From assembly GCA_964615415.1 (NCBI GenBank), contig CAZTNI010000002.1, positions 4,873 to 68,872 on the forward strand: 64,000 nucleotides of DNA. The letters run 5' to 3'. Source of the stretch: an uncultured Candidatus Saccharibacteria bacterium. GTDB lineage: Bacteria; Patescibacteriota; Minisyncoccia; Phycocordibacterales; SBAW01. This document shows, piece after piece, positions 3,590 through 42,728 of the stretch (the first letter of the stretch is position 1; each line of letters begins with the position of its first letter). The position numbers and the translations under genes were made by a program. Below the pieces are notes generated by a model that saw only the letters and a program-made list of their open reading frames with translations, was not told the DNA's origin and did no database searches.

Positions 3590-5380
3590 ATGCAACACAT
3601 CCGCAATTTTTCTATCATTGCCCATATTGACCACGGCAAGTCGACCCTTGCTGATCGTTTTTTGGAGTTAACCGGCACTATCGAGAAGCGCAAAATGCGC
3701 GAACAGGTGCTCGACTCCATGGAACTTGAACGTGAGCGCGGCATTACCATTAAGATGCAGCCAGTGCGTATGCAGTGGAAGGCAGAGGATGGGAAGGAGT
3801 ACATCATTAACCTGATAGATACCCCGGGCCATATCGACTTCTCTTACGAAGTATCTCGCGCGCTTACCGCAGTAGAGGGCGCTATTTTGCTTGTGGATGC
3901 GACACAGGGAGTGCAGGCACAAACGCTGACGACGCTGCGCACTGCGCGCGATTTAGGACTCGTTATCATTCCCGCCCTTTCTAAAATTGACTCTCCGCTT
4001 GCAGAGGTTGAAAAAGTAAAAGAGCAGGTGTCCCAGCTTCTTGATGTACCTGCAGGTTCTATTTTGAGTTGCTCAGGCAGAACAGGGGAAGGCGTAGAGG
4101 AATTGCTTAAGGCCGTTATAGAGCAAGTGCCGCCTCCAAAAGCAGAAGTAGAAACCACCGCGCCGAAAGCGCTCGTGTTCGACTTTCAATATTCCGACCA
4201 TCAGGGCGTTATTGTGTACCTGCGCATGTTCGAAGGACAAATTACAAAAGGTGACACGTTAGAATTTGCTGCTAGTGGACGCAAATTCCAAGCACTTGAA
4301 GTGGGAACGTTCTCGCCACAACCAAAACCACAAGAAAAGTTAGGTACGGGAACCATTGGCTACGTAGTGACGGGCATTAAAGAACCGGGCGTATCGCGCG
4401 TGGGCGACACTATTCGCTCAAAAGTGGGGAAGACAACGCCGCTTTCCGGCTATGCAGAACCAAAGCCGGTGGTGTGGGCCAGTGTTTACCCAGAAAGTCA
4501 GGATGATTTCCCCCTCCTGCGGCAGTCTCTTTCCCGATTGCAGCTTTCGGACTCGTCATTGTCGTTTGATGAAGAATCTTCGGGCGTGCTTGGTCGCGGC
4601 TTTCGCTGCGGTCTGCTCGGTATGCTCCACTTGGAAATTGTGACCGAACGGTTGCGTCGCGAATTTAACCTCACGCTTATTGTTACAACGCCGTCGATTA
4701 CGTATGAAGTAGAGACAGGGAAAGGAAAACGCGTAACGGTATATACGCCGTCGATGTTCCCGCCGTATGGGGAAATAGAACGAGTGTGGGAACCGTATAC
4801 CAACATAGAAATTATTCTCCCTGCGCACTATTTAGGTGCTATTACGCCGCTTTTGTTTGATCATGAAGGAGTGGTTGACTCTACGGCAAACTTTTCCGAA
4901 GGACGATTGATGCTTAAGGTAACAATGCCTCTGCGTGAACTGATGCGCAACTTTTTTGATAAAATCAAAAGTCTTTCAGCAGGATATGCGTCTATTTCGT
5001 ATGAAATCCGCGAGTTACGCGAGGCGGACGTTGCACGGCTCGATATTGTGGTTGCAGAAGAGATCGTCCCTGCGTTTACTCGTATTGTTGCAAAGCGTCG
5101 AGTTGAAACAGAGGCGATAGCTGCGGTAGAAAAACTCTACGGTATTTTGCCGCGACAGATGTTCGCTACGAAAATTCAAGGTCAGGCACTGGGGCGCATC
5201 GTCTCTTCTCGCACGTTGCCTGCGATGAGTAAAAACGTGACGCAGCACATGTACGGCGGCGACAGAACTCGCAAAATGAAGCTCTGGGAGAAGCAAAAGC
5301 GAGGTAAAGCCCGCATGAAAGAAAGCGGGAAGGTAAATATCCCGGAAGAGGTCTTCCTGAAGATGGTTAAAAACGACTAA
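3590..5380 (+). CDS. lepA: translation elongation factor 4 (LepA)
   Basis: NFSIIAHIDHGKSTLADR G-domain, DTPGHIDF, LepA-specific C-terminal domain; 596 aa. Confidence 0.95.
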   Translation: MQHIRNFSIIAHIDHGKSTLADRFLELTGTIEKRKMREQVLDSMELERERGITIKMQPVRMQWKAEDGKEYIINLIDTPGHIDFSYEVSRALTAVEGAILLVDATQGVQAQTLTTLRTARDLGLVIIPALSKIDSPLAEVEKVKEQVSQLLDVPAGSILSCSGRTGEGVEELLKAVIEQVPPPKAEVETTAPKALVFDFQYSDHQGVIVYLRMFEGQITKGDTLEFAASGRKFQALEVGTFSPQPKPQEKLGTGTIGYVVTGIKEPGVSRVGDTIRSKVGKTTPLSGYAEPKPVVWASVYPESQDDFPLLRQSLSRLQLSDSSLSFDEESSGVLGRGFRCGLLGMLHLEIVTERLRREFNLTLIVTTPSITYEVETGKGKRVTVYTPSMFPPYGEIERVWEPYTNIEIILPAHYLGAITPLLFDHEGVVDSTANFSEGRLMLKVTMPLRELMRNFFDKIKSLSAGYASISYEIRELREADVARLDIVVAEEIVPAFTRIVAKRRVETEAIAAVEKLYGILPRQMFATKIQGQALGRIVSSRTLPAMSKNVTQHMYGGDRTRKMKLWEKQKRGKARMKESGKVNIPEEVFLKMVKND

Positions 5381-26254: not shown

Positions 26255-26631
26255 CTACGAGAGAGCCGGTCTGCCCCAAAGGGGAAGGTAGGAGGCCCCT
26301 CGGGAGAGAAAGGCACCGACGGAATGCAGGGCTCCCCGAAACCGATCGCCGAGTGAAGGCTGCACCAGCGCTTCGAGTTCGACGATGACGATATCGAGCA
26401 TGGGGCCGAGTTCCTTGTCGCCGGGACCGAAGTCGAGACGACCATCTTCGTTGATAGCGAAGAACGGTTCAGGAACGGGAATCACTTCTCCCCCGCGCTG
26501 GCGAGCAAACATACCCGCCTCGTTCGAGAAGAACTCCGTGGTGGAGTTCGGGTCGAGCTGGGACGCGGCCGCCGCTACGACAAAGCATGCGCAGCCAGGA
26601 CCACAGCCAACAAAGCTTCTCTGTTGCATGG
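26255..26631 (-). CDS. hypothetical protein (GC-rich island)
   Basis: Shine-Dalgarno GGAAG before ATG (MQQRSFVGCGPGCAC...); about 65% GC against a roughly 50% background. Confidence 0.4.
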
Positions 26632-26790
26632 AGCTTCCTTTCGTTGTGGGTACATCGTCCAACCAGGATGGGTGGGCATGGCTACTATACAACGATATAA
26701 GAAAAAGAAAATGCCCCCGTTTTGCTTTCACAAAACGGGGGACTTGGGGGAGCGTCAGCGTGGAAGGATGAGGGGAAAACCCCCTCGAGA

Positions 26791-27321
26791 TCAGGCAGCG
26801 ATACGCTGCCTGACGTTGTCGTTGGCGACAGTCAGCCTCTGGGCGCCGCCACCTCCGGGGCGGCGAGCCGTGCCGAAGCCGTGATCCACTTCGTGACGGC
26901 GAAGGCGGATCGTGCCACCGCGCCGGCCGAACCGAATCGTCGGGTCGTGCACGAGGGCGATGAGACCGTAGTCCGAGTCCTGGATAGGCACCGGGACGCG
27001 GTCGTTGTCGGCGCGGGCGAGGAGCATCGTGTAGAAGTCCTCGAACGGGTCGGCATCGAGCCGCGGCGGCGGTGTGGTCCAGTCATCGAGCGGATCCATC
27101 GGGATCGTGAGCGTGACCATGCCGGAGGCAGCGCCATTGCCGAAGGCGAGGTCCATCACCATGGCATCGAGAGGCGGGCCATGCAGGCCGACCATCACGA
27201 TTTCGAAGTCGGGGGTGATTCCGCCACCACCGCCAGGGTCTGCCGAAAGCGGACCGGCTGTGGCGTAGGGGCCGCAGACAGCCGCGACGGCGGCGCCTGC
27301 GAGAAGAAACGTGCGTTTCAT
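26791..27321 (-). CDS. secreted hypothetical protein (GC-rich island)
   Basis: Strong Shine-Dalgarno AAGGAGGAAGG; signal peptide MKRTFLLAGAAVAAVCG; Gly/Pro-rich. Confidence 0.55.
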   Translation of the reverse strand: MKRTFLLAGAAVAAVCGPYATAGPLSADPGGGGGITPDFEIVMVGLHGPPLDAMVMDLAFGNGAASGMVTLTIPMDPLDDWTTPPPRLDADPFEDFYTMLLARADNDRVPVPIQDSDYGLIALVHDPTIRFGRRGGTIRLRRHEVDHGFGTARRPGGGGAQRLTVANDNVRQRIAA

Positions 27322-27830
27322 TCCGCCTTCCTCCTTCTGTTGCTAAAGAGCAGTTACGCCTCCGAATATACTCCAGTTGCAAAAAAGCGCAATAAGGGGC
27401 GTGTGCATAAAAAAGCCCCTCATTTTGAGGGGCTTTGGTTTGGGAGCGGTCTGTTGGTACGAGCCCTATTTTGTTTTCTCTCTTGGTAGAGAAGAACACT
27501 CAAGGGTTGTTCGTCGCTAGACTCCTTTGCCTCGTCAGAGGCGGTTCGTCGATCGGCGTGCCGTTCGTGGCTACGCCGTCATGGATGAGAGGTCGGCGCC
27601 GGCGTCATACTACTGGAGGGTGAGCGTGCGCTTCATCGAGCACTCCTGTGGTTGGGCCCAAAAGGACAGTACTTCTTAACTATACACCCAACGGGTATGT
27701 TTGTCAAGCTCTACCAAGTGTGTTCTAAAAATGGCCTAAAATAAGGCTTTTTAAGCCTATTTGCGAGTGTATACAAAACGAGCCCCATCGGCGAATGTCG
27801 ATGGGGCAGTAGTGAAAAAGGTCGAGACGG

Positions 27831-31544: not shown

Positions 31545-31556
31545 GTGTACTATTCT

Positions 31557-32795
31557 ATGCCTTCCAGTAAAGAAAAGGGTGATCTGCTGGAAGAGATAAT
31601 TGAAGAACTGTGCGTAGGAATTAAAAATGTAAAAGTATCACGAAATTTAAAAATAATTGGTAAAAAAACTAAAGAAGAAAGAGAAATCGACGTTTATATC
31701 GAAGGAAAACAAGGAGTATTTGATATAAAAATTGCAATTGAATCTAAAAATTATGGAGAACCAGTGGGTGTTGAAAAAGTTGAGAGTTTCAAAGCAAAGT
31801 TAGAAGATATTGCTGCTGATTTAGGTGTAATGGTGTGTCCAACTGGATTTACAGAGCCAGCAAAAAAACGAGCAGAGTTTGACGGAATTCAATTATTTGA
31901 GGTGTATGATGAACGGCTGGGTAACAGCAAATGGTTTATTCCTATTCGTTTCATTGAACCTGAATTAACAAAACATCGCTTTACTTTTAAAGGGAGGGGA
32001 GGTGGTCCTTTCTCAATATCTATAGATTCACAAAAATGGAGATTTCATATAGAAGGGAAAATACTCACAACTGAAGAGTTCACCACCTATCTGTGGAATA
32101 AAGGAAAGATTCCTCAAAAAGCAGGTGAACATAAAATTGATCACGGCGCAGTCGTTATTAGTGAAGAAGGGAATCCAGATAAGGTGCAATATTGTGAAAT
32201 AGAAGTAGATGTTGTAGTTGAAGAGCGATATTTTTTAAAATTAATTCCAGCCTCTTTTCTTAAAAAAACTTCTGAAAATAAACAAAATTTCCAAATCAAA
32301 TTAGATCTCTATTCTAAGGAAAAAGACATGTTAAATAATGGTTGGAGAAAATTTCTCACTTTAGAAGAAATGAACCAAGCGGCAGATATTGAAAATCAAC
32401 CAGAAGGAATTAGGGGTTTAATATTGCATCCGAAGTATACGTATGAGTATGCTAAAAAGCACGAATTGCGTTTGCATCCGCGACCTTTCGAAAAGATTCG
32501 CAGCGGCAAGCAAATAATCGAGTCGCGGCTCAATGATGAAAAGCGTCAACAGATTAAAGTCGGGGACCATCTTGTGTTTGCTTTGCGGCCAGATTTTGTA
32601 GAAAAAGAAGAGGTGGAAGTGGTGGAGCTAATCCATGCGCCCACATTCCGCGACCTATTTCTTTCGCGTCCACTTACGGAATTTGGTATAGAAGATGGAA
32701 ACATTGAGCGAGTAGAAAATATGTACGAATACTACTCCAAAGAAGATGAAGCAAAATACGGAGTAGTTGGTATAAAATTTAAAAAACATGGCTAA
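31557..32795 (+). CDS. Mrr-like PD-(D/E)XK nuclease fused to a C-terminal ASCH (PUA-like) domain; candidate modification-dependent restriction endonuclease
   Basis: N-terminus: EIDVYIEGK ... IKIAIESKNYG (D...ExK restriction-endonuclease core). C-terminus: FEKIRSGKQIIESR...IKVGDHLVF...VEVVELIHAPTF...YGVVGIKFK matches the ASCH fold (compare E. coli YqfB). The N-terminal two thirds are about 32% GC; the ASCH part is about 47% GC. Confidence 0.65.
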   Translation: MPSSKEKGDLLEEIIEELCVGIKNVKVSRNLKIIGKKTKEEREIDVYIEGKQGVFDIKIAIESKNYGEPVGVEKVESFKAKLEDIAADLGVMVCPTGFTEPAKKRAEFDGIQLFEVYDERLGNSKWFIPIRFIEPELTKHRFTFKGRGGGPFSISIDSQKWRFHIEGKILTTEEFTTYLWNKGKIPQKAGEHKIDHGAVVISEEGNPDKVQYCEIEVDVVVEERYFLKLIPASFLKKTSENKQNFQIKLDLYSKEKDMLNNGWRKFLTLEEMNQAADIENQPEGIRGLILHPKYTYEYAKKHELRLHPRPFEKIRSGKQIIESRLNDEKRQQIKVGDHLVFALRPDFVEKEEVEVVELIHAPTFRDLFLSRPLTEFGIEDGNIERVENMYEYYSKEDEAKYGVVGIKFKKHG

Positions 32796-33264: not shown

Positions 33265-33343
33265 AGCAGATGGTTGACTAACTGAGGTTTTTGTACTATT
33301 ATAGTTTCGGAACTTCCTTACACACAACAGGAAAGGGAATCAC

Positions 33344-33841
33344 ATGGGTTTCTTTAGCTTCTTTTTTGGCGGGAACAAGAAGCCTGCGCGCCAGCAGTGG
33401 CCGCAGGACCGCTTTGTCCCGCCTCCGCCTCCTCCTGCGTCTGCTCATACTCATCGGCGGAAGCCGAGGTATGTCATCGGTCCGAATCGGAAGGTGTTCT
33501 ACCCGCAGCCGAATGGGACCTATCAGGCCGATGACGGCGCGGTCATCAACTCTGTCATCCTCCAGGGCTTGCTCGCGGATGGTGAGGTGGGCGGGTACCG
33601 TGCGGTTGAGACGTTGCCGGCTGACCTGGTGCGTCATCCGCAGCCGCCCAGCATGGGACACGGCGTGCCGGTCTTCGACGCTCATGCGCATCATCGCCAT
33701 GACCACGGACTGCATCATCGTCATGAACCGGCTCACACGCCTTCCGGCTTCGATTCAAGCCCGTCCCTGGGTGGTGGCTCTGACACAGGCGGTGGCTCTT
33801 CTGGCGGGGGCGACTCCGGTGGCGGAGGTGGGAGCTTCTAG
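33344..33841 (+). CDS. Pro/His/Gly-rich low-complexity protein (GC-rich islet)
   Basis: Shine-Dalgarno GGAAAGGGA; PPPPPP, HAHHRHDHGLHHRHEP and GGGSSGGGDSGGGGGS tracts; own terminator. Confidence 0.5.
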   Translation: MGFFSFFFGGNKKPARQQWPQDRFVPPPPPPASAHTHRRKPRYVIGPNRKVFYPQPNGTYQADDGAVINSVILQGLLADGEVGGYRAVETLPADLVRHPQPPSMGHGVPVFDAHAHHRHDHGLHHRHEPAHTPSGFDSSPSLGGGSDTGGGSSGGGDSGGGGGSF

Positions 33842-33865
33842 CACTCTTGTTCTTCTATAATATGC

Positions 33866-34416: not shown

Positions 34417-34713
34417 ATGACGCTTAAGCAGCGTCGGCGCATCAAGCGCCGGAATGGAATTCATGTGCCTACCCGCGCTTCGAAGCGCGGGTGGAAGGCG
34501 CGGGGCTTTATGGCCCTTGCTTTGGCACCGACGCCGCCGCGCGCTCCGGAGCCGGTCGCGGTACGCACTGTGGCGTCCAAGCCTCGTGTGTTGCCGGGGT
34601 CGACCCCTACGAAGCCGAGGGTCGCGCAGTTGCCGGAGTCGCTCATGAAGCCGGTCAGGCGCCCTCGGCGCAAGCAGCCGCATCCCGACGAGGAGCTTGC
34701 AGCAGCCGAATAG
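34417..34713 (+). CDS. small basic Pro/Arg-rich protein (GC-rich islet)
   Basis: Shine-Dalgarno GGGAGAGTAAG; KQRRRIKRRNG; own strong terminator. Confidence 0.5.
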   Translation: MTLKQRRRIKRRNGIHVPTRASKRGWKARGFMALALAPTPPRAPEPVAVRTVASKPRVLPGSTPTKPRVAQLPESLMKPVRRPRRKQPHPDEELAAAE

Positions 34714-34735
34714 CCTGCACTGTTCTTTTAATATC

Positions 34736-34766
34736 GCCGCACCCTCACGAGGGTGCGGCTTTTCTT
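34736..34766 (+). terminator. rho-independent terminator
   Basis: GCCGCACCCTC-acga-GGGTGCGGC followed by TTTTCTT. Confidence 0.7.
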
Positions 34767-34821
34767 AATCGTATCTTTAGCGGCACTGTAAGAAAATAAG
34801 ATCTCACACATCATATAGGGT

Positions 34822-36364: not shown

Positions 36365-37657
36365 ATGTCTACATTTCAAATTATTGTGCTCGGTATATTT
36401 GGCGCATTAGTGCTCCTTGGTGTCGGTGTGTTTGCTACGATGGGGGGCTTGGGTAACAGTAATGCGGTGGGGAATGTAGTGGTGTGGGGTACGCTGCCCG
36501 CACTGACGGTCAACGAGGCACTAGCAGAGGGAGACAAAGACATATTGGGAGGTGTGTCGTATGTATATAAAAATCCTGCTACGTATGAAAAAGATTTAGT
36601 AGACGCTATGGCGAGCGGCAAGGGTCCGGACCTCTTCTTGATATCGACCGAAGAGGTAACTACCTTTGCCGACAAAATCATCCCTATTCCGTATCGCTAT
36701 GTCTCGCAGGGTACGTTTTTAAACTCGTTTATAGACGGCGCACAACAATTCCTAACTCCGCAGGGCGCACTCGCGCTACCGTTTACGATCGACCCGCTTG
36801 TTATGTACTGGAACCGGGACCTCTTTGCGGGTGCAGGTGTTGCAACGCCGCCGGTCTACTGGAACGACTTTTTAGAATTGGCGCCGAAAATAACGTCGTA
36901 TAACGTTGGTTCTGCGGTAAAGAAAAGTAGCGTTGCTCTTGGCGAGTGGCGCAATGTCGACCATGCAAAAGAAATTTTATACACGCTCTTTATGCAAGCG
37001 GGTGACCGTGTTGTGGTGCGCGGGAGTAACGGTACGCCTACGTCAGTCTTTGGGGAAAATACCGCGCGCGTAAACGGTGCAGCGGAGTCTGTGGTGCGCT
37101 TTTATACCGAATTTGCCAACCCGACAAAAACCAGCTACTCGTGGAATCGTTCCCTCCCGCGCTCGCGTGAAGCATTTATTGCCGGCGACTTGGCAGTGTA
37201 TTTTGGGTTAGTGAGCGAGGGAAGCAGTTTTGTCACTCGCAACCCTAACCTGCGCTTTGGTGTAGCGGAAGTGCCGCAGATTGAGGGAAATAGCTCAAAA
37301 TTTACCTACGGCTTACTGAGTGGGCTCGCTATTGCCCGCACGGCGCGCAATCCAAACGGCGCCGTTGTTGTGGCTCAAGAGTTATCTGGACCGGCAGTTG
37401 TTGCGGCGCTTGTGGGCACGACCGGGTTGCCGCCGGTCCGACGCGATGTCTCGGTAAATACCACCGCGAACGCCAGTGTTGGAATTGCTATAAAGTCGGC
37501 GTTGTACTCGTGGGGCTTCCTTGACCCTAATCCACTGGAGACCTCTGCCGCATTTCAGACCATGATAGAATCCGTAATAAGCGGGGCAAATACGCCAAGC
37601 GAAGCAGTGCGGGATGCTGCACAGGAACTTCGTTCACTTATGCCTTCGTCTCGATAA
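36365..37657 (+). CDS. extracellular solute-binding protein (ABC transporter SBP, family 1-like), membrane anchored
   Basis: N-terminal TM anchor, then an SBP_bac_1-like pattern (GPDLFLISTEEV, DPLVMYWNRDLF, VYWNDFLEL). Confidence 0.7.
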   Translation: MSTFQIIVLGIFGALVLLGVGVFATMGGLGNSNAVGNVVVWGTLPALTVNEALAEGDKDILGGVSYVYKNPATYEKDLVDAMASGKGPDLFLISTEEVTTFADKIIPIPYRYVSQGTFLNSFIDGAQQFLTPQGALALPFTIDPLVMYWNRDLFAGAGVATPPVYWNDFLELAPKITSYNVGSAVKKSSVALGEWRNVDHAKEILYTLFMQAGDRVVVRGSNGTPTSVFGENTARVNGAAESVVRFYTEFANPTKTSYSWNRSLPRSREAFIAGDLAVYFGLVSEGSSFVTRNPNLRFGVAEVPQIEGNSSKFTYGLLSGLAIARTARNPNGAVVVAQELSGPAVVAALVGTTGLPPVRRDVSVNTTANASVGIAIKSALYSWGFLDPNPLETSAAFQTMIESVISGANTPSEAVRDAAQELRSLMPSSR

Positions 37658-37660
37658 CGT

Positions 37661-38071
37661 ATGATACGCACATTTTTTGTAACTCTGGCACTCCTCCTTT
37701 CGCCGCTATTTGTCTTTGCACAAGGAGGAGGGTTTGATACACCAGGTGGTGGTGTTGATACTGCAGGAGGAGGAGTCGACAATGCCTACTCGCTCCAGAA
37801 TCCTCTTAACGTTAGCTCTGTTCCGGAGCTCCTCGACCGATTTTTCCAAGCGATTCTTATAATTGTAGTGCCGTTTGCGGTTTTGTTTATTGTCTACGCT
37901 GGTTTTCGGCTTATTCTTGCGCGTGGTAATCCGAAGGAGCTTGCAACCGCGAAGCGTCAGCTCCTTTATACACTGCTTGGTATCGCAATTGTTATCAGTG
38001 CCTCAATCATCATCAATATCCTGATAGACACCGCGTGTCAGGTTGATATTAGAGGTGTGTCTGACTGCTAG
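37661..38071 (+). CDS. pilin-like small protein, copy 1 (signal peptide + 2 TM; VirB2/TrbC-like architecture)
   Basis: Signal peptide ...VFAQ; Gly-rich mature N-terminus; helix - NPKELATAKRQ loop - helix; ends in NILID. Confidence 0.55.
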   Translation: MIRTFFVTLALLLSPLFVFAQGGGFDTPGGGVDTAGGGVDNAYSLQNPLNVSSVPELLDRFFQAILIIVVPFAVLFIVYAGFRLILARGNPKELATAKRQLLYTLLGIAIVISASIIINILIDTACQVDIRGVSDC

Positions 38072-38073
38072 CT

Positions 38074-38409
38074 ATGTTTGAAGACGTCCGTACATTTGCA
38101 GACTTTGTGGCCGTTATAGTCGGCTATGTAAACCTTATTGTAGGGTTGTTAGCCTCGATAGCGTTGTTGATGTTTTTAGTAAACATTGTGCGTTTTGTAT
38201 TTGAAATCTCGAGCGGAAAGTATAAAGCAGAGCGTAAAAAGGCAATTATGTGGAGTGTTGTTGCGCTCTTCGTCCTTTTTTCTATTGCAGGCATTGTCCG
38301 TGTGTTGATGGTTACATTGTTGCCTAACGAAACGTACCGGGAGTCCTGGACCACAGACCGTACAAACTACCCGAACCAGTACCCGGTCGACATAGACTCG
38401 CTTAACTAG
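38074..38409 (+). CDS. pilin-like small protein, copy 2
   Basis: The same helix - basic loop (SSGKYKAERKKAIMW) - helix module; starts 3 nt after copy 1. Confidence 0.5.
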   Translation: MFEDVRTFADFVAVIVGYVNLIVGLLASIALLMFLVNIVRFVFEISSGKYKAERKKAIMWSVVALFVLFSIAGIVRVLMVTLLPNETYRESWTTDRTNYPNQYPVDIDSLN

Positions 38410-38488
38410 TTGTCCACAGGAAGGCCCGCTGGGCCTTGAGGCAGGGGTTGGGTCTGCTACAGTTAAGGCATATAAGTATTAATATTGT

Positions 38489-38836
38489 ATGAAAAAGTTA
38501 CTTGCAGCTTCGTCTTTGATATATGCTCTTCCGTTCGTTGCGTTTGCACAGACAGACGCAAAAGATACTATTACTCAGCTTGTGGAAGCACTAGGAGGTA
38601 TCGTAGATCTTCTTATCCCAATAATGATCGGTTTGGCTCTCGTTATCTTCTTCTGGGGTCTTATCCGCTTCGTATTTAACCAGGGTAGCGATAAAGCAGC
38701 AGCTGCTAAGAAGTACATGCTTTGGAGCGTTATCGCACTCTTCATCATGGTGTCTATCATGGGCATTATCGGAGTGATCCGCACCACCTTGGGTGTTAAC
38801 GAGGATTCAACTATAAAGGCTCCAAGTATTAACTAA
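38489..38836 (+). CDS. pilin-like small protein, copy 3
   Basis: Signal peptide ...AFAQ; LIPIMIGLALVIFFWGLIRFVF - NQGSDKAAAAKKY - MLWSVIALFIMVSIMGIIGVI. Confidence 0.55.
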   Translation: MKKLLAASSLIYALPFVAFAQTDAKDTITQLVEALGGIVDLLIPIMIGLALVIFFWGLIRFVFNQGSDKAAAAKKYMLWSVIALFIMVSIMGIIGVIRTTLGVNEDSTIKAPSIN

Positions 38837-38842
38837 TTCTGA

Positions 38843-39118
38843 ATGGATCCGCGCTCGTTTACACAGAGTCTCTCGGACAATGTTATCCAGCCCTTCATAC
38901 TCTTGTTCTTCGCGCTCGGGTTCCTGATCTTCGTCTACGGTATTGTGGAGTACGTGTGGGGTCTTTCGACCGACACGCTTGCTAAGGAAAACGGCAAGAA
39001 GCACATGCTCTGGGGAGTCATCGGTATGTTTATCATGGCGGGTGCGTATGGGATCTTTAACCTCATGGTGGATCTGATAGGCGCTCCAGTCGGTGTCGAC
39101 ACTATCTGGCGAGACTAA
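38843..39118 (+). CDS. pilin-like small protein, copy 4
   Basis: FILLFFALGFLIFVYGIVEYVW - AKENGKKH - MLWGVIGMFIMAGAYGIF; same module. Confidence 0.5.
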   Translation: MDPRSFTQSLSDNVIQPFILLFFALGFLIFVYGIVEYVWGLSTDTLAKENGKKHMLWGVIGMFIMAGAYGIFNLMVDLIGAPVGVDTIWRD

Positions 39119-39135
39119 AAAACAGACAAAAGAAA

Positions 39136-39170
39136 AACGGCGGGCCCTGAAAAGGGTCCGCCGTTTGCGT
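39136..39170. terminator. bidirectional rho-independent terminator
   Basis: AACGGCGGGCCC-tgaaaa-GGGTCCGCCGTT with an A-run upstream and TTGCGTT downstream. Confidence 0.7.
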
Positions 39171-39181
39171 TGTAGAAGGTA

Positions 39182-40063
39182 CTAGAAACAGACGTAGAGG
39201 CTGGTGCGTGGTGAGTGCGGAATGCAGAGCGTGTGCGAGATGGTCGCCTCTGCGGTAACTGCCTGCACCGAGTAGATGCTGTACGCAGTTACCACCACGT
39301 CGCCGCGCACACAGGCGCGGTCTATCACCACTTCGCCCGCGCGGTTGAGGAAGGCAACACAGCCCGACTCGACCACCCAGCGTAGCTCGCAGCCGTTTGC
39401 ACTGATTACTCGCGGTTCTTCTCCTGCCCGAAGGGGGAGAAGTTCCGACGTGCCAGGGCACGCGGCTGCTGCTGCACTTTCAGAAAATGGCCACCACATT
39501 GTCTCTACGATCTGGGCGCGTGCCGAGGAGACGAGCCCCAAGGTCACAACGACCGCAAAGAAGGTGAGTGCAAGATGGTTAGGCTTCATCGCGCCGGGGC
39601 TTATCATCGAAATGATGATGAGGACGACGAGGTAGGCGATCGACCCCACGAGAATACCCACCAAGATAAGAAGAGCGATGTCTGTCACGAAGGACAAGAC
39701 CGGCTCTGGGATCACCCTGGTAACATTCTCGTACACTTCCGGCGGCACAATCGTCACGAGGGCGGTCAGGCCGATGGTAAGGAAGAGAACCGGAGCCCAT
39801 GCCCACCAGTACCGCCAGATGCTGCTTCGTCCGGACGATGTGTCCGACGAAGAGGTTTCAGAGGCGTGTTCCTCGTGCCCATGATCCTCCGCGTGTTCGT
39901 CGTGGTGGTCGTCTGCATGATGGTCGGTGTGAGGTGCCGGAGCAGTCATGGTCTCCTTGATCCTTTTGGTGCGACGATGGTCGCGATACAAGCCAAGGGC
40001 GACGATACTGAAGAGCAGTAACGCCCCCACTAGAGCAAGTGTTGCTATCTGTCCTACTGTCAT
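39182..40063 (-). CDS. polytopic membrane protein with a His-rich loop and a C-terminal soluble domain (possibly NfeD-like)
   Basis: HTDHHADDHHDEHAEDHGHEEH tract; four TM helices; C-terminal approximately 100-aa soluble domain; start overlaps the upstream SPFH gene stop (ATGA). Confidence 0.45.
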   Translation of the reverse strand: MTVGQIATLALVGALLLFSIVALGLYRDHRRTKRIKETMTAPAPHTDHHADDHHDEHAEDHGHEEHASETSSSDTSSGRSSIWRYWWAWAPVLFLTIGLTALVTIVPPEVYENVTRVIPEPVLSFVTDIALLILVGILVGSIAYLVVLIIISMISPGAMKPNHLALTFFAVVVTLGLVSSARAQIVETMWWPFSESAAAAACPGTSELLPLRAGEEPRVISANGCELRWVVESGCVAFLNRAGEVVIDRACVRGDVVVTAYSIYSVQAVTAEATISHTLCIPHSPRTSLYVCF

Positions 40064-41370
40064 GGAGTGTCAGGTCCTTGTGGCGGAGTAGTGCCGCTGG
40101 TACGGTTTCTCCGGTCAGGGTTGCGCAGAGCGTCGAGAATAGCCACCTGTACTGGATCAACGGACGGGCCGCTGGTGCCAGGGAGGATAACCATTCCGCC
40201 TGCTTCGCCGGCAGCTTTCGCTGCACGGACCATTCCTTCGATGTGCGGAATCGCTTCCGCACCTGGGTGAGTCTTGAGAGCCTCGCCCTGTTCGCGAATG
40301 TCGGCTGCCTTGCCTTTTGCGCGCTCTTCCATCGCCTGACGGTCGATGCGAGCAATGGCGAGGTCGCCGAGAGCATCATATCGACTCTTGTCAGACGGGC
40401 TGATGTCGAGTACTTGGACAGAGGGAAGTGCGATGCCGAACTCAACGGCAGCGCCCTGCATGATGACGCCTCTTATAATGCGACCATTCTCGTTGAGAAT
40501 AGTTTCTTCGAGCTCGCGCACTAGCGCAGGACTTTCCGCCGACAACACAGCTTCAAGAGGCCGGGGCCTCGTATAATGCGTTACCGAGTCAGAGATCGTT
40601 GCGATAAGACGTGTACCCCAGTCGTCGTCCGAATTGTACGCAGTGAGGTGCGGATTGAATACCCGCGCTATTGCGTTGACAAGGATTTCGACCGGGATCT
40701 TGTCCTTCGTGTCGGCAGCCGGTACCCGCAAGGGGAACTGGAAGTCGCCGACGCGATAGTGGTCGCTCCAGTCAAGGAGTCGACGAAGTTCGATCTCGCC
40801 ACCGCTTTGCGTGATCTTCTTGAAGTGCTCAAGAGGATAGGTGCGGACTTTCTGGAACGGGTAGATGCCGGTAAAGACAGCACCCGTCAACCAGTACACC
40901 CACTCCTTCCACAACCAGAAGAGAATGCTGAGCGGCGAGTAGAAGATCCAGAGTATTGTCCATATCCCGTACAATCGCTTGGTGGGAAATGGAATAGGAT
41001 CTGAGCCGCCTGAGTAGATAGAAGGGACTACCTCCCAGTAGTGAACGTCTCGGATGGTGTAGCCGCTTGCAGGATCTTCGCCGAGGAACATCTTGTCGTG
41101 CGATTTCATAATCGCGTACTTAAAGAGGTCGCCTCGCTCGATTATCTTCACCTTCTCGGGTTCGATGTAGGTGAAGTAGCCAAAGTCCGACTTCTCGTGG
41201 TCTGGTGCTGTGCCGAGGTCGTCGTGCACGGTGTCCGTAGTGCCGCGGTATTTATTTGGCCTGTTGGTGAGTCTGTCGATAAGACCCGGCCACAATGGCA
41301 GCAGAAAGAGAAACAAAACTACGCTACCAAGAATGCCCAGTGCGTAGCCAAGAACCGGATCTACGATCAT
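40060..41370 (-). CDS. SPFH/band-7 (stomatin/flotillin-like) domain protein with an unusual 180-aa N-terminal 2-TM region
   Basis: SPFH core pattern (TKDKIPVEILVNAIARV...VEFGIALPSVQVLDISPSD) plus a coiled-coil tail; about 60% GC. Confidence 0.65.
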   Translation of the reverse strand: MIVDPVLGYALGILGSVVLFLFLLPLWPGLIDRLTNRPNKYRGTTDTVHDDLGTAPDHEKSDFGYFTYIEPEKVKIIERGDLFKYAIMKSHDKMFLGEDPASGYTIRDVHYWEVVPSIYSGGSDPIPFPTKRLYGIWTILWIFYSPLSILFWLWKEWVYWLTGAVFTGIYPFQKVRTYPLEHFKKITQSGGEIELRRLLDWSDHYRVGDFQFPLRVPAADTKDKIPVEILVNAIARVFNPHLTAYNSDDDWGTRLIATISDSVTHYTRPRPLEAVLSAESPALVRELEETILNENGRIIRGVIMQGAAVEFGIALPSVQVLDISPSDKSRYDALGDLAIARIDRQAMEERAKGKAADIREQGEALKTHPGAEAIPHIEGMVRAAKAAGEAGGMVILPGTSGPSVDPVQVAILDALRNPDRRNRTSGTTPPQGPDTP

Positions 41371-41485
41371 GTTTTTTCCTTTCGAAGAGCTAGGGTTGTG
41401 CGGATATGCACCGCTCTGCGGCGCATTTTATCATATTTCGAGCAAAAAGTCAAGCTACAATAGCCTTATGTTGCAACGTATTTTG

Positions 41486-41567
41486 TGGGCGAGGGGAGAC
41501 TCGAACTCCCAATCCGTGAGGAACGTGGTCCTAAGCCACGCGCGTATACCAATTCCGCCACTCGCCC
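41486..41567 (-). tRNA. tRNA-Leu (anticodon TAG)
   Basis: Long variable arm; anticodon loop CTTAGGA; acceptor GGGCGAG/CTCGCCC. Confidence 0.85.
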
Positions 41568-41653: not shown

Positions 41654-41726
41654 GCGCCCATAGCTCAGTTGGTAGAGCTGCTCCCTCTTAAGGAGAAGGT
41701 CGTAGGTTCGAATCCTACTGGGCGCA
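41654..41726 (+). tRNA. tRNA-Lys (anticodon CTT)
   Basis: 73 nt; anticodon loop CTCTTAA; GGTTCGAATCC T-arm. Confidence 0.9.
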
Positions 41727-41735
41727 CAAATTGTG

Positions 41736-42599
41736 CTAAAAAAGTTTTCCGGGCATGAATCGCCACAGGAGTGGCGGGAGTTCCACAAGGTGTGTACAGA
41801 ATTGTTTTTTAAATTGCGAAAATCCTTTCCAGTGTTTGTCTTTGCCAGGGCCCCAAAATAATCCTAAATGTACAAAGCGCACACCCCGAGTAGCTGCCTC
41901 TCGGTGCCAGTAGTCCATGAGTCCGATCATGAGCGGGTCTTTACTTACTTCGTCTTGTATAAAGCCTGCTATGTAGTAGGTGCTTTTGGTGCTAGGCGAC
42001 CATAGGGTGGAGATCCCTGCCACTACTCTTCCTTTTGCGTCGCGGACACCGTATAGCTCGGTGTACGGTGTGTTTTGTATACAGTTACGTTCTGTGTAGG
42101 CAAGTTGCTGGTCGCCAATGTTTCTATACACAAAACTTTTTTTGTATGCAGCACTAAATTCTTCCATCGTAATAGGAGTGATTGTGTATGTGTTGTTCGC
42201 AACAAGAGTGAGCCATTTTTTGCAATAGCGTTTTGCAGTCGGTGCCCACGCGTCGTGGTAATCAGAGTTAAGGCTAAGGTCCGCGAAGCCGATTATTTCC
42301 GCAGGGCGTTTTGAAAATTGGTGCCATCCTTTTGGAATATCGCGGCGCCGCACGCGCGACCATGCAATAAAGCGAGGCGGCGGTGTACCAATGCGTGCTG
42401 CACTCGCAAGGTCTGGCTCCGTGTCGCTTATATATTTTTCAAAAAAAAGAGGCCAAATACCCCAGCGCAATCCTTTAGGGTGGGTGAGCAGTTCAAGAGA
42501 TTTTTGTGAGGAGGGAGGAGCGGTGGTGAGGTGATACTCAGGCCACTCTTCTTTAAGAGAGCATTCTTGGGGAATCGTCGTTTTAAAATGATCCTCCAT
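41736..42599 (-). CDS. FemAB-family (GNAT-fold) aminoacyltransferase-like protein
   Basis: C-terminal pattern IGLMDYWHREAATRGVRFVHLGLF...WKGFSQFKKQF resembles the FemAB/MurM C-terminus. The longer ORF upstream is a translation artefact of tRNA-Leu. Confidence 0.45.
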   Translation of the reverse strand: MEDHFKTTIPQECSLKEEWPEYHLTTAPPSSQKSLELLTHPKGLRWGIWPLFFEKYISDTEPDLASAARIGTPPPRFIAWSRVRRRDIPKGWHQFSKRPAEIIGFADLSLNSDYHDAWAPTAKRYCKKWLTLVANNTYTITPITMEEFSAAYKKSFVYRNIGDQQLAYTERNCIQNTPYTELYGVRDAKGRVVAGISTLWSPSTKSTYYIAGFIQDEVSKDPLMIGLMDYWHREAATRGVRFVHLGLFWGPGKDKHWKGFSQFKKQFCTHLVELPPLLWRFMPGKLF

Positions 42600-42609
42600 A
42601 TGTACTACT

Positions 42610-42700
42610 TGGTGCCGGGAGTGGGAATCGAACCCACACGAGCGTTTAACGGCTCCCAGGATTTTAAGTCCTGTATGTCTACCAATTCCATCATCCCGGC
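42610..42700 (-). tRNA. tRNA-Leu (anticodon TAA)
   Basis: 91 nt with CCA; anticodon loop CTTAAAA; long variable arm. Confidence 0.9.
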
Positions 42701-42728
42701 AATACACGCCATGATAGATGCGTATGCG

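Follow-up and report, generated by a model that had tools for sequence, protein, structure and literature searches.

The window analysed here is a 64,000-nucleotide (nt) stretch of contig CAZTNI010000002.1 from an uncultured Candidatus Saccharibacteria bacterium (positions 4,873 to 68,872, forward strand), and our subject is a pair of minus-strand genes within it, called gene A and gene B. The open reading frames (ORFs) run from 40060 to 41370 (gene A, 436 aa) and from 39182 to 40063 (gene B, 293 aa). As the earlier note on this DNA had observed, the two are joined by an ATGA overlap: the minus strand reads ...GAC ACT CCA TGA CAG... across the junction, so that the stop codon of gene A and the start codon of gene B share 4 nt. 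We judge it fairly probable that the pair is a native, vertically inherited operon of Patescibacteria (Candidate Phyla Radiation [CPR]; Kaiserbacteria-like) in which a divergent SPFH scaffold is coupled to a client or partner that is not NfeD. The two genes and their parts, with transmembrane helices abbreviated TM and AlphaFold2 models AF2, are as follows.

40060..41370, minus strand: gene A, divergent SPFH (stomatin/prohibitin/flotillin/HflKC) protein of 436 aa (Pfam, hhalign, AF2, and Foldseek)
41293..41364, minus strand: N-terminal TM anchor of gene A, aa 3-26 (AF2 helix H3-26, conserved in the family)
40885..41109, minus strand: conserved insertion of about 75 aa in gene A, aa 88-162 (family alignment and AF2)
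40201..40881, minus strand: SPFH core (aa 164-325) and long coiled-coil helices (aa 328-390) of gene A (AF2, Foldseek, and hhalign)
39182..40063, minus strand: gene B, polytopic membrane partner of 293 aa, translationally coupled to gene A (ATGA overlap and positional orthologues)
39854..39943, minus strand: His/Asp/Glu-rich low-complexity linker of gene B, aa 41-70, between TM1 and TM2, predicted to be cytoplasmic (sequence and AF2)
39497..39826, minus strand: TM2 to TM4 of gene B, aa 80-189 (AF2 helices H80-105, H120-154, and H161-189)
39185..39478, minus strand: C-terminal six-Cys beta domain of gene B, aa 196-293, a cupin-like double-stranded beta-helix predicted to be extracytoplasmic (AF2, Foldseek, and phmmer)

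Gene A scored just below the gathering cut-off of the Pfam family Band_7 (PF01145; E = 1.4e-4, 22.5 bits versus 23.6, aa 198-355), and several members of its family carry a precomputed PF01145 match. There was no match in NCBIfam, and sequence searches of the PDB with proteins A and B returned nothing useful from either. A database search returned 44 homologues that share 30-48% identity with gene A, and all of the named ones are Patescibacteria (e.g., Kaiserbacteria or "Patescibacteria group"). When the profile of the gene A family (29 homologues) was aligned with Escherichia coli QmcA by hhalign, the match over aa 215-387 had a probability of 95.6% (E = 1.2e-8). The AF2 model built on the family alignment had a mean predicted local distance difference test score (pLDDT) of 84.9 and gave 61 Foldseek matches at E <= 1e-3, the best PDB matches being human stomatin (E = 1.6e-9), HflK/C, prohibitin, major vault protein, flotillin, and erlin. 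The model has the SPFH alpha/beta fold followed by long coiled-coil helices (H328-390), which resemble those of cage-forming SPFH proteins. Sequence profile and predicted fold agree that gene A is a true but very divergent SPFH/band-7 protein, and the earlier reading of an atypical SPFH protein with a clear core and a coiled-coil tail was correct.

The N-terminal part of gene A is organized differently from what had been supposed. The earlier note described an unusual 180-aa region with two TM helices and a conserved-looking soluble insert. The first helix is the N-terminal membrane anchor typical of the SPFH superfamily, hydrophobic at aa 3-26 throughout the gene A family. The beta-strands of the model already begin at about aa 64-66, after the anchor and a short variable linker, and the N terminus therefore consists of an anchor, a linker, and an SPFH domain that is interrupted by an insertion. 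We take the family motifs SxFGFFT and PGxVKIIERG to be the first SPFH strands, and TGAVFTGIYPFQxVRxYPLE is presumably the next canonical strand (compare "pGlhfiiPf"). The insertion lies between the first strands ("VKIIERG...") and TGAVFTGIYPFQ and carries a YWEV...DPIP motif, which in the family alignment reads YWEV...D(S/T)HPxP and lies inside the insertion together with a hydrophobic helix. The peptide YWEVVPSIYSGGSDPIPF that had been singled out is indeed found in gene A and is partly conserved, W112 being nearly invariant and P125 invariant in the family. The supposed second TM helix (aa 136-162, 40885-40965; AF2 helix H136-162) closes the insertion. Its hydrophobic stretch is long in Kaiserbacteria-type members, and in a shorter, Saccharibacteria-type subfamily (P0033-P0044) it spans only about 13-17 residues with Arg or Lys inside, so the segment is not conserved as membrane spanning. 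The insertion helix probably dips into the inner leaflet or lies in the plane of the membrane, and by comparison with solved SPFH cages the insertion region, placed between the first SPFH strands, probably faces the membrane.

Gene B was predicted by AF2 to have four TM helices and a C-terminal soluble domain, in agreement with the earlier description of a four-TM partner coupled to gene A. The C-terminal domain was modelled as all-beta, with a pLDDT of 84-96 in most blocks and of 66 in one block, and forms a double-stranded beta-helix (jelly-roll) barrel in the predicted structure. Its best Foldseek matches were small cupins and cyclic nucleotide (cNMP)-binding jelly rolls, of which the best (E = 2.7e-3) was not significant, and the Pfam cupin profile did not match the domain. 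The domain is cupin-like in its modelled fold and is not a demonstrated member of the cupin family. A word-indexed homologue search with gene B found only gene B itself, and one with an 11-sequence alignment found almost nothing. An exhaustive phmmer search of 1.84 billion representatives gave 16 matches and brought out a conserved six-Cys C-terminal domain (P0050-P0062) with the pattern CPGxP...C-x-LRW-x-I-xx-GC...C...C...C; in gene B the cysteines are residues 202, 225, 235, 251, 280, and 292. The carriers of this domain have 136-278 aa and one or four TM helices. Two matches were left out, P0056 (long, repetitive, and Cys-rich with immunoglobulin-like repeats) and P0048 (1356 aa with 19 matched stretches). 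We also collected positional orthologues of gene B, defined as the genes directly downstream of gene A homologues in related loci. They are only 12-19% identical to gene B but share its layout: TM1 and a low-complexity linker precede about three more TM helices, and the C-terminal 100 aa or so form a beta-rich domain.

The earlier note had called gene B NfeD-like, and the searches did not bear this out. The NfeD profile PF01957 matched neither gene B nor 10 of its positional orthologues at E <= 1, while the positive control, E. coli YbbJ, matched it at 3.5e-12. NCBIfam gave no NfeD match and its best matches were noise, hhalign of the gene B family against YbbJ gave a probability of 0.2%, and the two fold-search lists for the C-terminal domain held no oligonucleotide/oligosaccharide-binding (OB)-fold or NfeD structure. 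Homology to NfeD was rejected on these grounds: Pfam, NCBIfam, orthologue Pfam, hhalign, and the two fold searches. Gene B shares with the NfeD family the trait of being a multi-TM protein in an operon with an SPFH gene and is an analogue, not a homologue, of NfeD.

The pair occupies a conserved chromosomal position. A genome scan found eight related loci, all from Patescibacteria and including Kaiserbacteria and Saccharibacteria metagenome-assembled genomes, and a metagenome scan found 33 more (about 40 in total). The shared neighbourhood consists of IF-2/RbfA, the SPFH gene, and the partner gene, facing four T4SS_pilin genes, a solute-binding protein gene, a methyltransferase gene, and gyrA. 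In every related locus with enough downstream DNA, the partner gene starts between -4 and +11 nt from the SPFH stop codon. The pilin block is convergent with the SPFH pair in relatives that range from Kaiserbacteria to Saccharibacteria.

At this fixed position the two proteins vary greatly. In loci L003-L008, protein A is 40-47% identical to that of the window, and the counterpart of B is undetectable by BLAST. Conversely, the six-Cys domain of gene B is 33-40% identical to that of partners that stand behind at least four very different SPFH-like genes in the same locus. These SPFH-like genes, each followed by a partner with a six-Cys domain, are listed here.

L015:3846-4988: SPFH-like gene in the same chromosomal position
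L017:364-1722: SPFH-like gene in the same chromosomal position
L019:295-1392: SPFH-like gene in the same chromosomal position
L055:2-712: SPFH-like gene fragment in the same chromosomal position
L057:2-544: SPFH-like gene fragment in the same chromosomal position

The L015 protein is 21% identical to gene A, and the L017, L019, L055, and L057 proteins have no BLAST similarity to it; between each other, too, the five have at most 21% identity or no BLAST similarity. Their Band_7 matches were significant for L017 (5e-10) and weak for L015, L019, L055, and L057 (9e-4 to 0.04). In locus L016, the flanking solute-binding protein and methyltransferase are 55% and 61% identical to those of the window, as close as in the nearest relatives, but gene A is only 20% identical. 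These identities suggest reassortment of SPFH genes and partner ectodomains at one unchanging chromosomal position. The pattern would fit surface-exposed, interaction-facing proteins, possibly with exchange of the cassette between CPR lineages, and this hypervariable mosaic cassette is the moderately interesting part of the locus. Loci L055 and L057 also have an extra gene of about 150-170 aa without a Pfam match between the partner gene and the pilin cluster (L055:1465-1968, plus strand; L057:1395-1853, minus strand), which is absent from the window.

The features that surround the pair in the window are as follows.

41485..41567, minus strand: tRNA-Leu(UAG), directly upstream of the operon (tRNA gene call)
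41425..41453, minus strand: promoter-like site, TTGACT-17 nt-TAAAAT with a TG extension (10 of 12 consensus matches; putative function)
41406..41426, minus strand: hairpin in the 5' leader, core GCGCCGC-AGA-GCGGUGC, with no U-tract (60-nt leader, -16.6 kcal/mol, z = -2.9)
39135..39166, both strands: bidirectional intrinsic terminator between gene B and the convergent pilin gene (14-nt arms, 93% complementary, GC-rich)
37661..39118, plus strand: four tandem T4SS_pilin (PF18895/TrbC-like) genes, convergent on gene B (four of four above the Pfam cut-off)

The promoter-like site resembles the sigma-70 consensus and lies between tRNA-Leu and gene A, about 55 nt 5' of the start codon. Read on the minus strand, the hairpin at 39135-39166 has a folding energy of -21.8 kcal/mol (z = -4.0) and is followed by a U-run (UUUUUCUUUUGUCUGUUUUUU); on the plus strand its energy is -30.1 kcal/mol, and shuffled sequences never folded equally well. 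With its own promoter-like site and this strong bidirectional terminator downstream, the A-B unit is a self-contained bicistronic operon. The earlier statement that the genes are bracketed by terminators therefore holds for the downstream side only. A search 5' of gene A found no upstream terminator, only the tRNA gene, the promoter-like site, and the leader hairpin, which was rejected as a terminator because no U-tract follows it. The same note considered the gene order reversed relative to the classic nfeD-stomatin operon. An SPFH-first order is not unusual: in E. coli, qmcA likewise precedes ybbJ and overlaps it by 4 nt.

Three tRNA genes lie on the upstream side of the operon: Leu-UAG at 41485-41567, Lys-CUU at 41654-41727, and Leu-UAA at 42610-42700. 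A mechanically called ORF at 41736-42707 overruns tRNA-Leu(UAA), and the real start of that gene therefore lies downstream of 42610; its 290-aa remainder has no Pfam match. On the other side, the first of the four pilin genes also matches TrbC/VirB2, and the pilin genes are preceded by a gene for a membrane-anchored solute-binding protein (36365-37657).

The membrane topology of both proteins was predicted from their charges. In both families, the N-terminal flank of TM1 has no Lys or Arg and the C-terminal flank has two to five, and by the positive-inside rule TM1 would therefore be N-out/C-in in both. In gene A the residues ahead of the helix include no Lys or Arg, and the basic residues R33, R37, K40, and R42 come after it; this charge pattern is found family-wide, and family members with extra N-terminal helices retain the same parity. 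The SPFH domain is accordingly predicted to be cytoplasmic. For gene B, the charge bias and the AF2 helices together predict a cytoplasmic linker and three further helices that place the C-terminal domain outside. The single-TM relatives of the partner have a basic N terminus, which predicts N-in/C-out. The last 110 aa contain an even number of cysteines (2, 4, or 6) in all 32 complete partners, whereas gene A has no Cys anywhere, and for this reason the extracytoplasmic domain of gene B is probably disulfide bonded.

The model that we favour for the pair takes up these predictions. Gene A would be held in the membrane by an N-out/C-in anchor, with its SPFH domain in the cytoplasm and the helix of its lineage-specific insertion dipping into the inner leaflet. 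Its long coiled coils would allow a ring or cage to form at the cytoplasmic surface of the membrane, with TM1 and the insertion helix as anchors. Gene B would be its obligate, translationally coupled client, with a short N-out TM helix, a disordered cytoplasmic linker, three TM helices, and an extracytoplasmic cupin-like beta-barrel of about 100 aa that is probably disulfide bonded. The SPFH oligomer may corral the TM bundle and linker of gene B in a membrane microdomain and so control the clustering, display, or stability of the surface-exposed domain, much as HflK/C holds FtsH and flotillin holds NfeD. The rapid evolution of the cassette and its mosaic structure beside T4SS-pilin genes would fit an interaction-facing role at the cell surface. 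Cage assembly and the client relation are modelled on known SPFH complexes (HflK/C-FtsH, stomatin, and FloA-NfeD in PMC11222466).

Several points weigh against this model. The oligomerization of gene A and its contact with gene B are proposed by analogy with other SPFH complexes, and charge bias is the sole basis for the topology of the two proteins. If the soluble domain of gene B and the SPFH domain do lie on opposite sides of the membrane, as predicted, contact would be possible only through TM helices or the disordered linker, and this would differ from the contact between OB fold and coiled coil seen with NfeD. The AF2 model of gene B was built on a shallow alignment (14 sequences, from the phmmer matches) and is confident only in the C-terminal domain (pLDDT of 75 overall, predicted template modelling score of 0.39). 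A hidden Markov model (HMM) of the six-Cys domain added only one weak match among the positional orthologues (L025, E = 0.004); homology to the C-terminal domains of most of them could not be shown, and because the HMM failed to unite all positional orthologues, a single homologous ectodomain family is not demonstrated. The adjacency of the pilin genes across the convergent terminator may be mere synteny.

The most probable of the alternatives, although still unlikely, is that the pair is a surface-conflict module for phage reception or exclusion, or for host attachment together with the adjacent T4SS-like pilins. Here the ectodomain of gene B would be a variable contact surface and the SPFH ring its platform. 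The extremely fast divergence of both genes at a fixed locus, the probably disulfide-stabilized and exposed ectodomain, and the four adjoining pilin genes, present from Kaiserbacteria to Saccharibacteria, would all fit such a role. However, the anti-phage defence models of PADLOC did not match the pair, the pilin genes are convergent and not cotranscribed with it, and the searchable literature links SPFH proteins to CPR host interaction only by passing mention. This alternative is compatible with the favoured scaffold-and-client model and is its most novel version. More broadly, we tentatively suggest that the locus could represent a previously undescribed class of SPFH system in Patescibacteria, in which a cytoplasmic SPFH ring with a lineage-specific, membrane-dipping insertion and the disulfide-bonded cupin-like ectodomain of a non-NfeD partner, swapped independently between lineages at a fixed locus beside the T4SS-pilin genes, form a diversifying surface system for host attachment or phage contact.

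A metal-handling module is an improbable alternative. It would have the His loop of gene B bind Ni, Co, or Zn, the pair act in metal sensing or efflux, and the cupin-like domain serve as a metal site. The His tract HTDHHADDHHDEHAEDHGHEEH reported in the earlier note is present: 9 of the 13 His residues of gene B lie within aa 41-70, interleaved with Asp and Glu, in a linker that was modelled as disordered (pLDDT <50). A linker rich in His and Glu recurs in P0049, the closest homologue over the full length, and that of L038 is somewhat His-rich. Gene B gave a match to the RcnA Ni/Co efflux family (NF007454, NCBIfam; E = 4.4e-4) that is compositional only, at 19.6 bits versus a cut-off of 195: the linker resembles the His-rich loop of RcnA in its His and acidic composition, but the rest of gene B is unrelated and has no transporter fold. 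The tract itself is not conserved and falls in a hypervariable low-complexity linker, which in most orthologues is rich in Pro, Ala, Thr, and Lys with 0-6 His. Cupins are often metalloproteins, but no cupin His/Glu metal-ligand motifs were found in the six-Cys domain family, whose conserved columns are only Cys, Gly, Arg, and Ala; the C-terminal domain of gene B has two His residues, neither of which is conserved there. Metal binding by the His tract, which the earlier note had raised, is chemically plausible. It would be a lineage-specific feature and is not the conserved function of the pair, the linker being Pro/Ala/Thr/Lys-rich in nearly all orthologues.

We give still less credence to a classic SPFH-NfeD operon. 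In that case gene B would have diverged from NfeD, and its C-terminal domain would bind the SPFH coiled coil on the cytoplasmic side and help to stabilize or turn over membrane proteins. The broad architecture of gene B (a small all-beta domain at the C terminus, after several TM helices) and its tight coupling to the SPFH gene, as in qmcA-ybbJ, would suit this explanation, and NfeD partners can diverge beyond detection (Hinderhofer 2009, PMC2636767). Against it stand the negative profile and fold searches described above, and the even Cys counts and charge topology, from which the folded domain of gene B is predicted to be extracytoplasmic, unlike the OB domain of NfeD, which is cytosolic (PMC11222466). 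This alternative is largely refuted.

The weakest alternative is that the pair came in by horizontal transfer as a GC-rich islet, whether from Actinobacteria, the candidate donor named in the earlier note, or from some other high-GC group. Its composition was examined in this light. The GC content was given there as about 60% against a background of about 50%. The background is right (50.1% for the window), but the pair has only 56.8% (55.6% for gene A and 58.6% for gene B). GC at third codon positions (GC3) is raised, at 0.634 for gene A (+1.7 standard deviations [SD]) and 0.680 for gene B (+2.3 SD) versus a mean of 0.502 (SD, 0.079), and gene B has the highest value of the 45 window genes of >=150 aa; GC at first and second positions (GC1 and GC2) is ordinary. 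The relative synonymous codon usage distance to the other window genes is average, gene B ranking 17th and gene A 26th of 45. Along gene A the GC content falls gradually to 0.52 at the 5' end, and therefore there is no sharp compositional border. The GC3 excess is a property of the gene in this lineage, since the partner gene is also GC enriched in relatives of about 50% GC (L015, L017, L019, and L020; 0.56-0.57 versus 0.49-0.50). The window has other native-looking genes with as high a GC content, mobile-element genes and flanking repeats are absent, and no integrase accompanies the adjacent tRNA genes. As the cassette is mosaic among relatives, CPR lineages could conceivably have exchanged it through recombination in the flanks, which are conserved. 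With homologues confined to Patescibacteria among the named matches, the same locus in about 40 related contigs, and unremarkable codon usage, acquisition from an actinobacterial or other high-GC phylum is refuted and retains only the slightest probability. The earlier note had itself named homologues from close relatives and the lack of an NfeD-like fold as findings that would tell against its reading, and both are what was found. The note was largely right in describing the pair; its two interpretations, an NfeD-like partner and horizontal acquisition, are not supported.

Other genes of the window are also unusual in composition. At 26255-27489, two opposite-strand genes with a 5'-end overlap of about 10 nt have GC contents of 0.58 and 0.625, as high as or higher than those of the A-B pair, and 26722-27489 has the largest codon-usage distance in the window. 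The plus-strand ORF at 31545-32795 (416 aa), directly after gyrA, encodes Mrr_cat restriction-endonuclease and ASCH domains. No other gene of the window deviates as strongly in composition (GC, 0.361; GC3, 0.276). Its codon-usage distance is the second largest, and it is a much better candidate for horizontal gene transfer than the A-B pair. In the plus-strand ORFs at 33291-33860 and 34491-34799, GC2 (0.64) equals or exceeds GC3, and an alternative ORF at 33344-33841 overlaps the first of them. A GC2 as high as GC3 is unusual in real coding frames, and these two may be misframed mechanical ORFs.

The coupled pair described here bears on what is known of SPFH partners. SPFH scaffolds are universal, and most of what is known about their partners in bacteria concerns NfeD proteins or the FtsH protease. 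Among the prokaryotic SPFH subfamilies, 1, 2, and 5 pair with NfeD, and the others have no known partner (PMC2636767). Searches of the accessible literature for SPFH, stomatin, or flotillin in CPR, Patescibacteria, or Saccharibacteria returned nothing specific, and no SPFH cassette of the A-B type in CPR. The locus points to a CPR-wide SPFH subfamily with an obligate coupled partner of another kind, polytopic and with a probably external, cupin-like, Cys-rich domain. Gene B is a defined candidate for the client of an SPFH cage, and this in bacteria whose episymbiotic way of life is governed by their surface biology. In those few Saccharibacteria that are experimentally tractable, work could be guided by the finding of a hypervariable mosaic cassette beside conserved pilin genes. 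If the tentative suggestion of a new system class is true, the module would be a diversifying surface system in episymbiotic ultrasmall bacteria, serving as a platform for host attachment or phage contact. The locus also illustrates that foreign origin should not be deduced from a modestly raised GC3 when the gene pair is syntenic and conserved.

Compared with the small cupins (YhaK, 2vec; YhhW, 6uts; RmlC, 1nxm; Cupin_2), the C-terminal domain of gene B differs in having neither a Pfam cupin match nor the conserved His/Glu metal motifs. It has instead six conserved Cys residues, which suggest disulfides, and it is membrane tethered and probably extracellular. Gene A shares its anchor, SPFH domain, coiled coils, and C-terminal helix with the cage-forming SPFH structures (stomatin, 9z7u/9oh9; HflK/C, 7vhq/9cz2; prohibitin, 8rrh; flotillin, 9bq2; and erlin), which it matched in Foldseek at E values of 1.6e-9 to 1e-5 with a probability of 1.0. 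In contrast to them, it has only 13-17% identity to the best full-length structures (ranks 1-23), scores under the Pfam gathering threshold, and has its N-terminal SPFH part split by the conserved insertion of about 75 aa with a hydrophobic helix. The SPFH-NfeD operons (qmcA-ybbJ, yqiJK, floA/floT-nfeD of Staphylococcus aureus and Bacillus subtilis, and PH1511-PH1510 of Pyrococcus) likewise couple an SPFH gene to a multi-TM partner that ends in a small all-beta domain. However, gene B has neither PF01957 nor an OB fold, its globular part is a Cys-rich, cupin-like domain with a predicted extracytoplasmic location, and it has an extra N-terminal TM helix and a long disordered linker. We classify the pair as a CPR-restricted SPFH subfamily with a non-NfeD partner that bears a cupin-like ectodomain.

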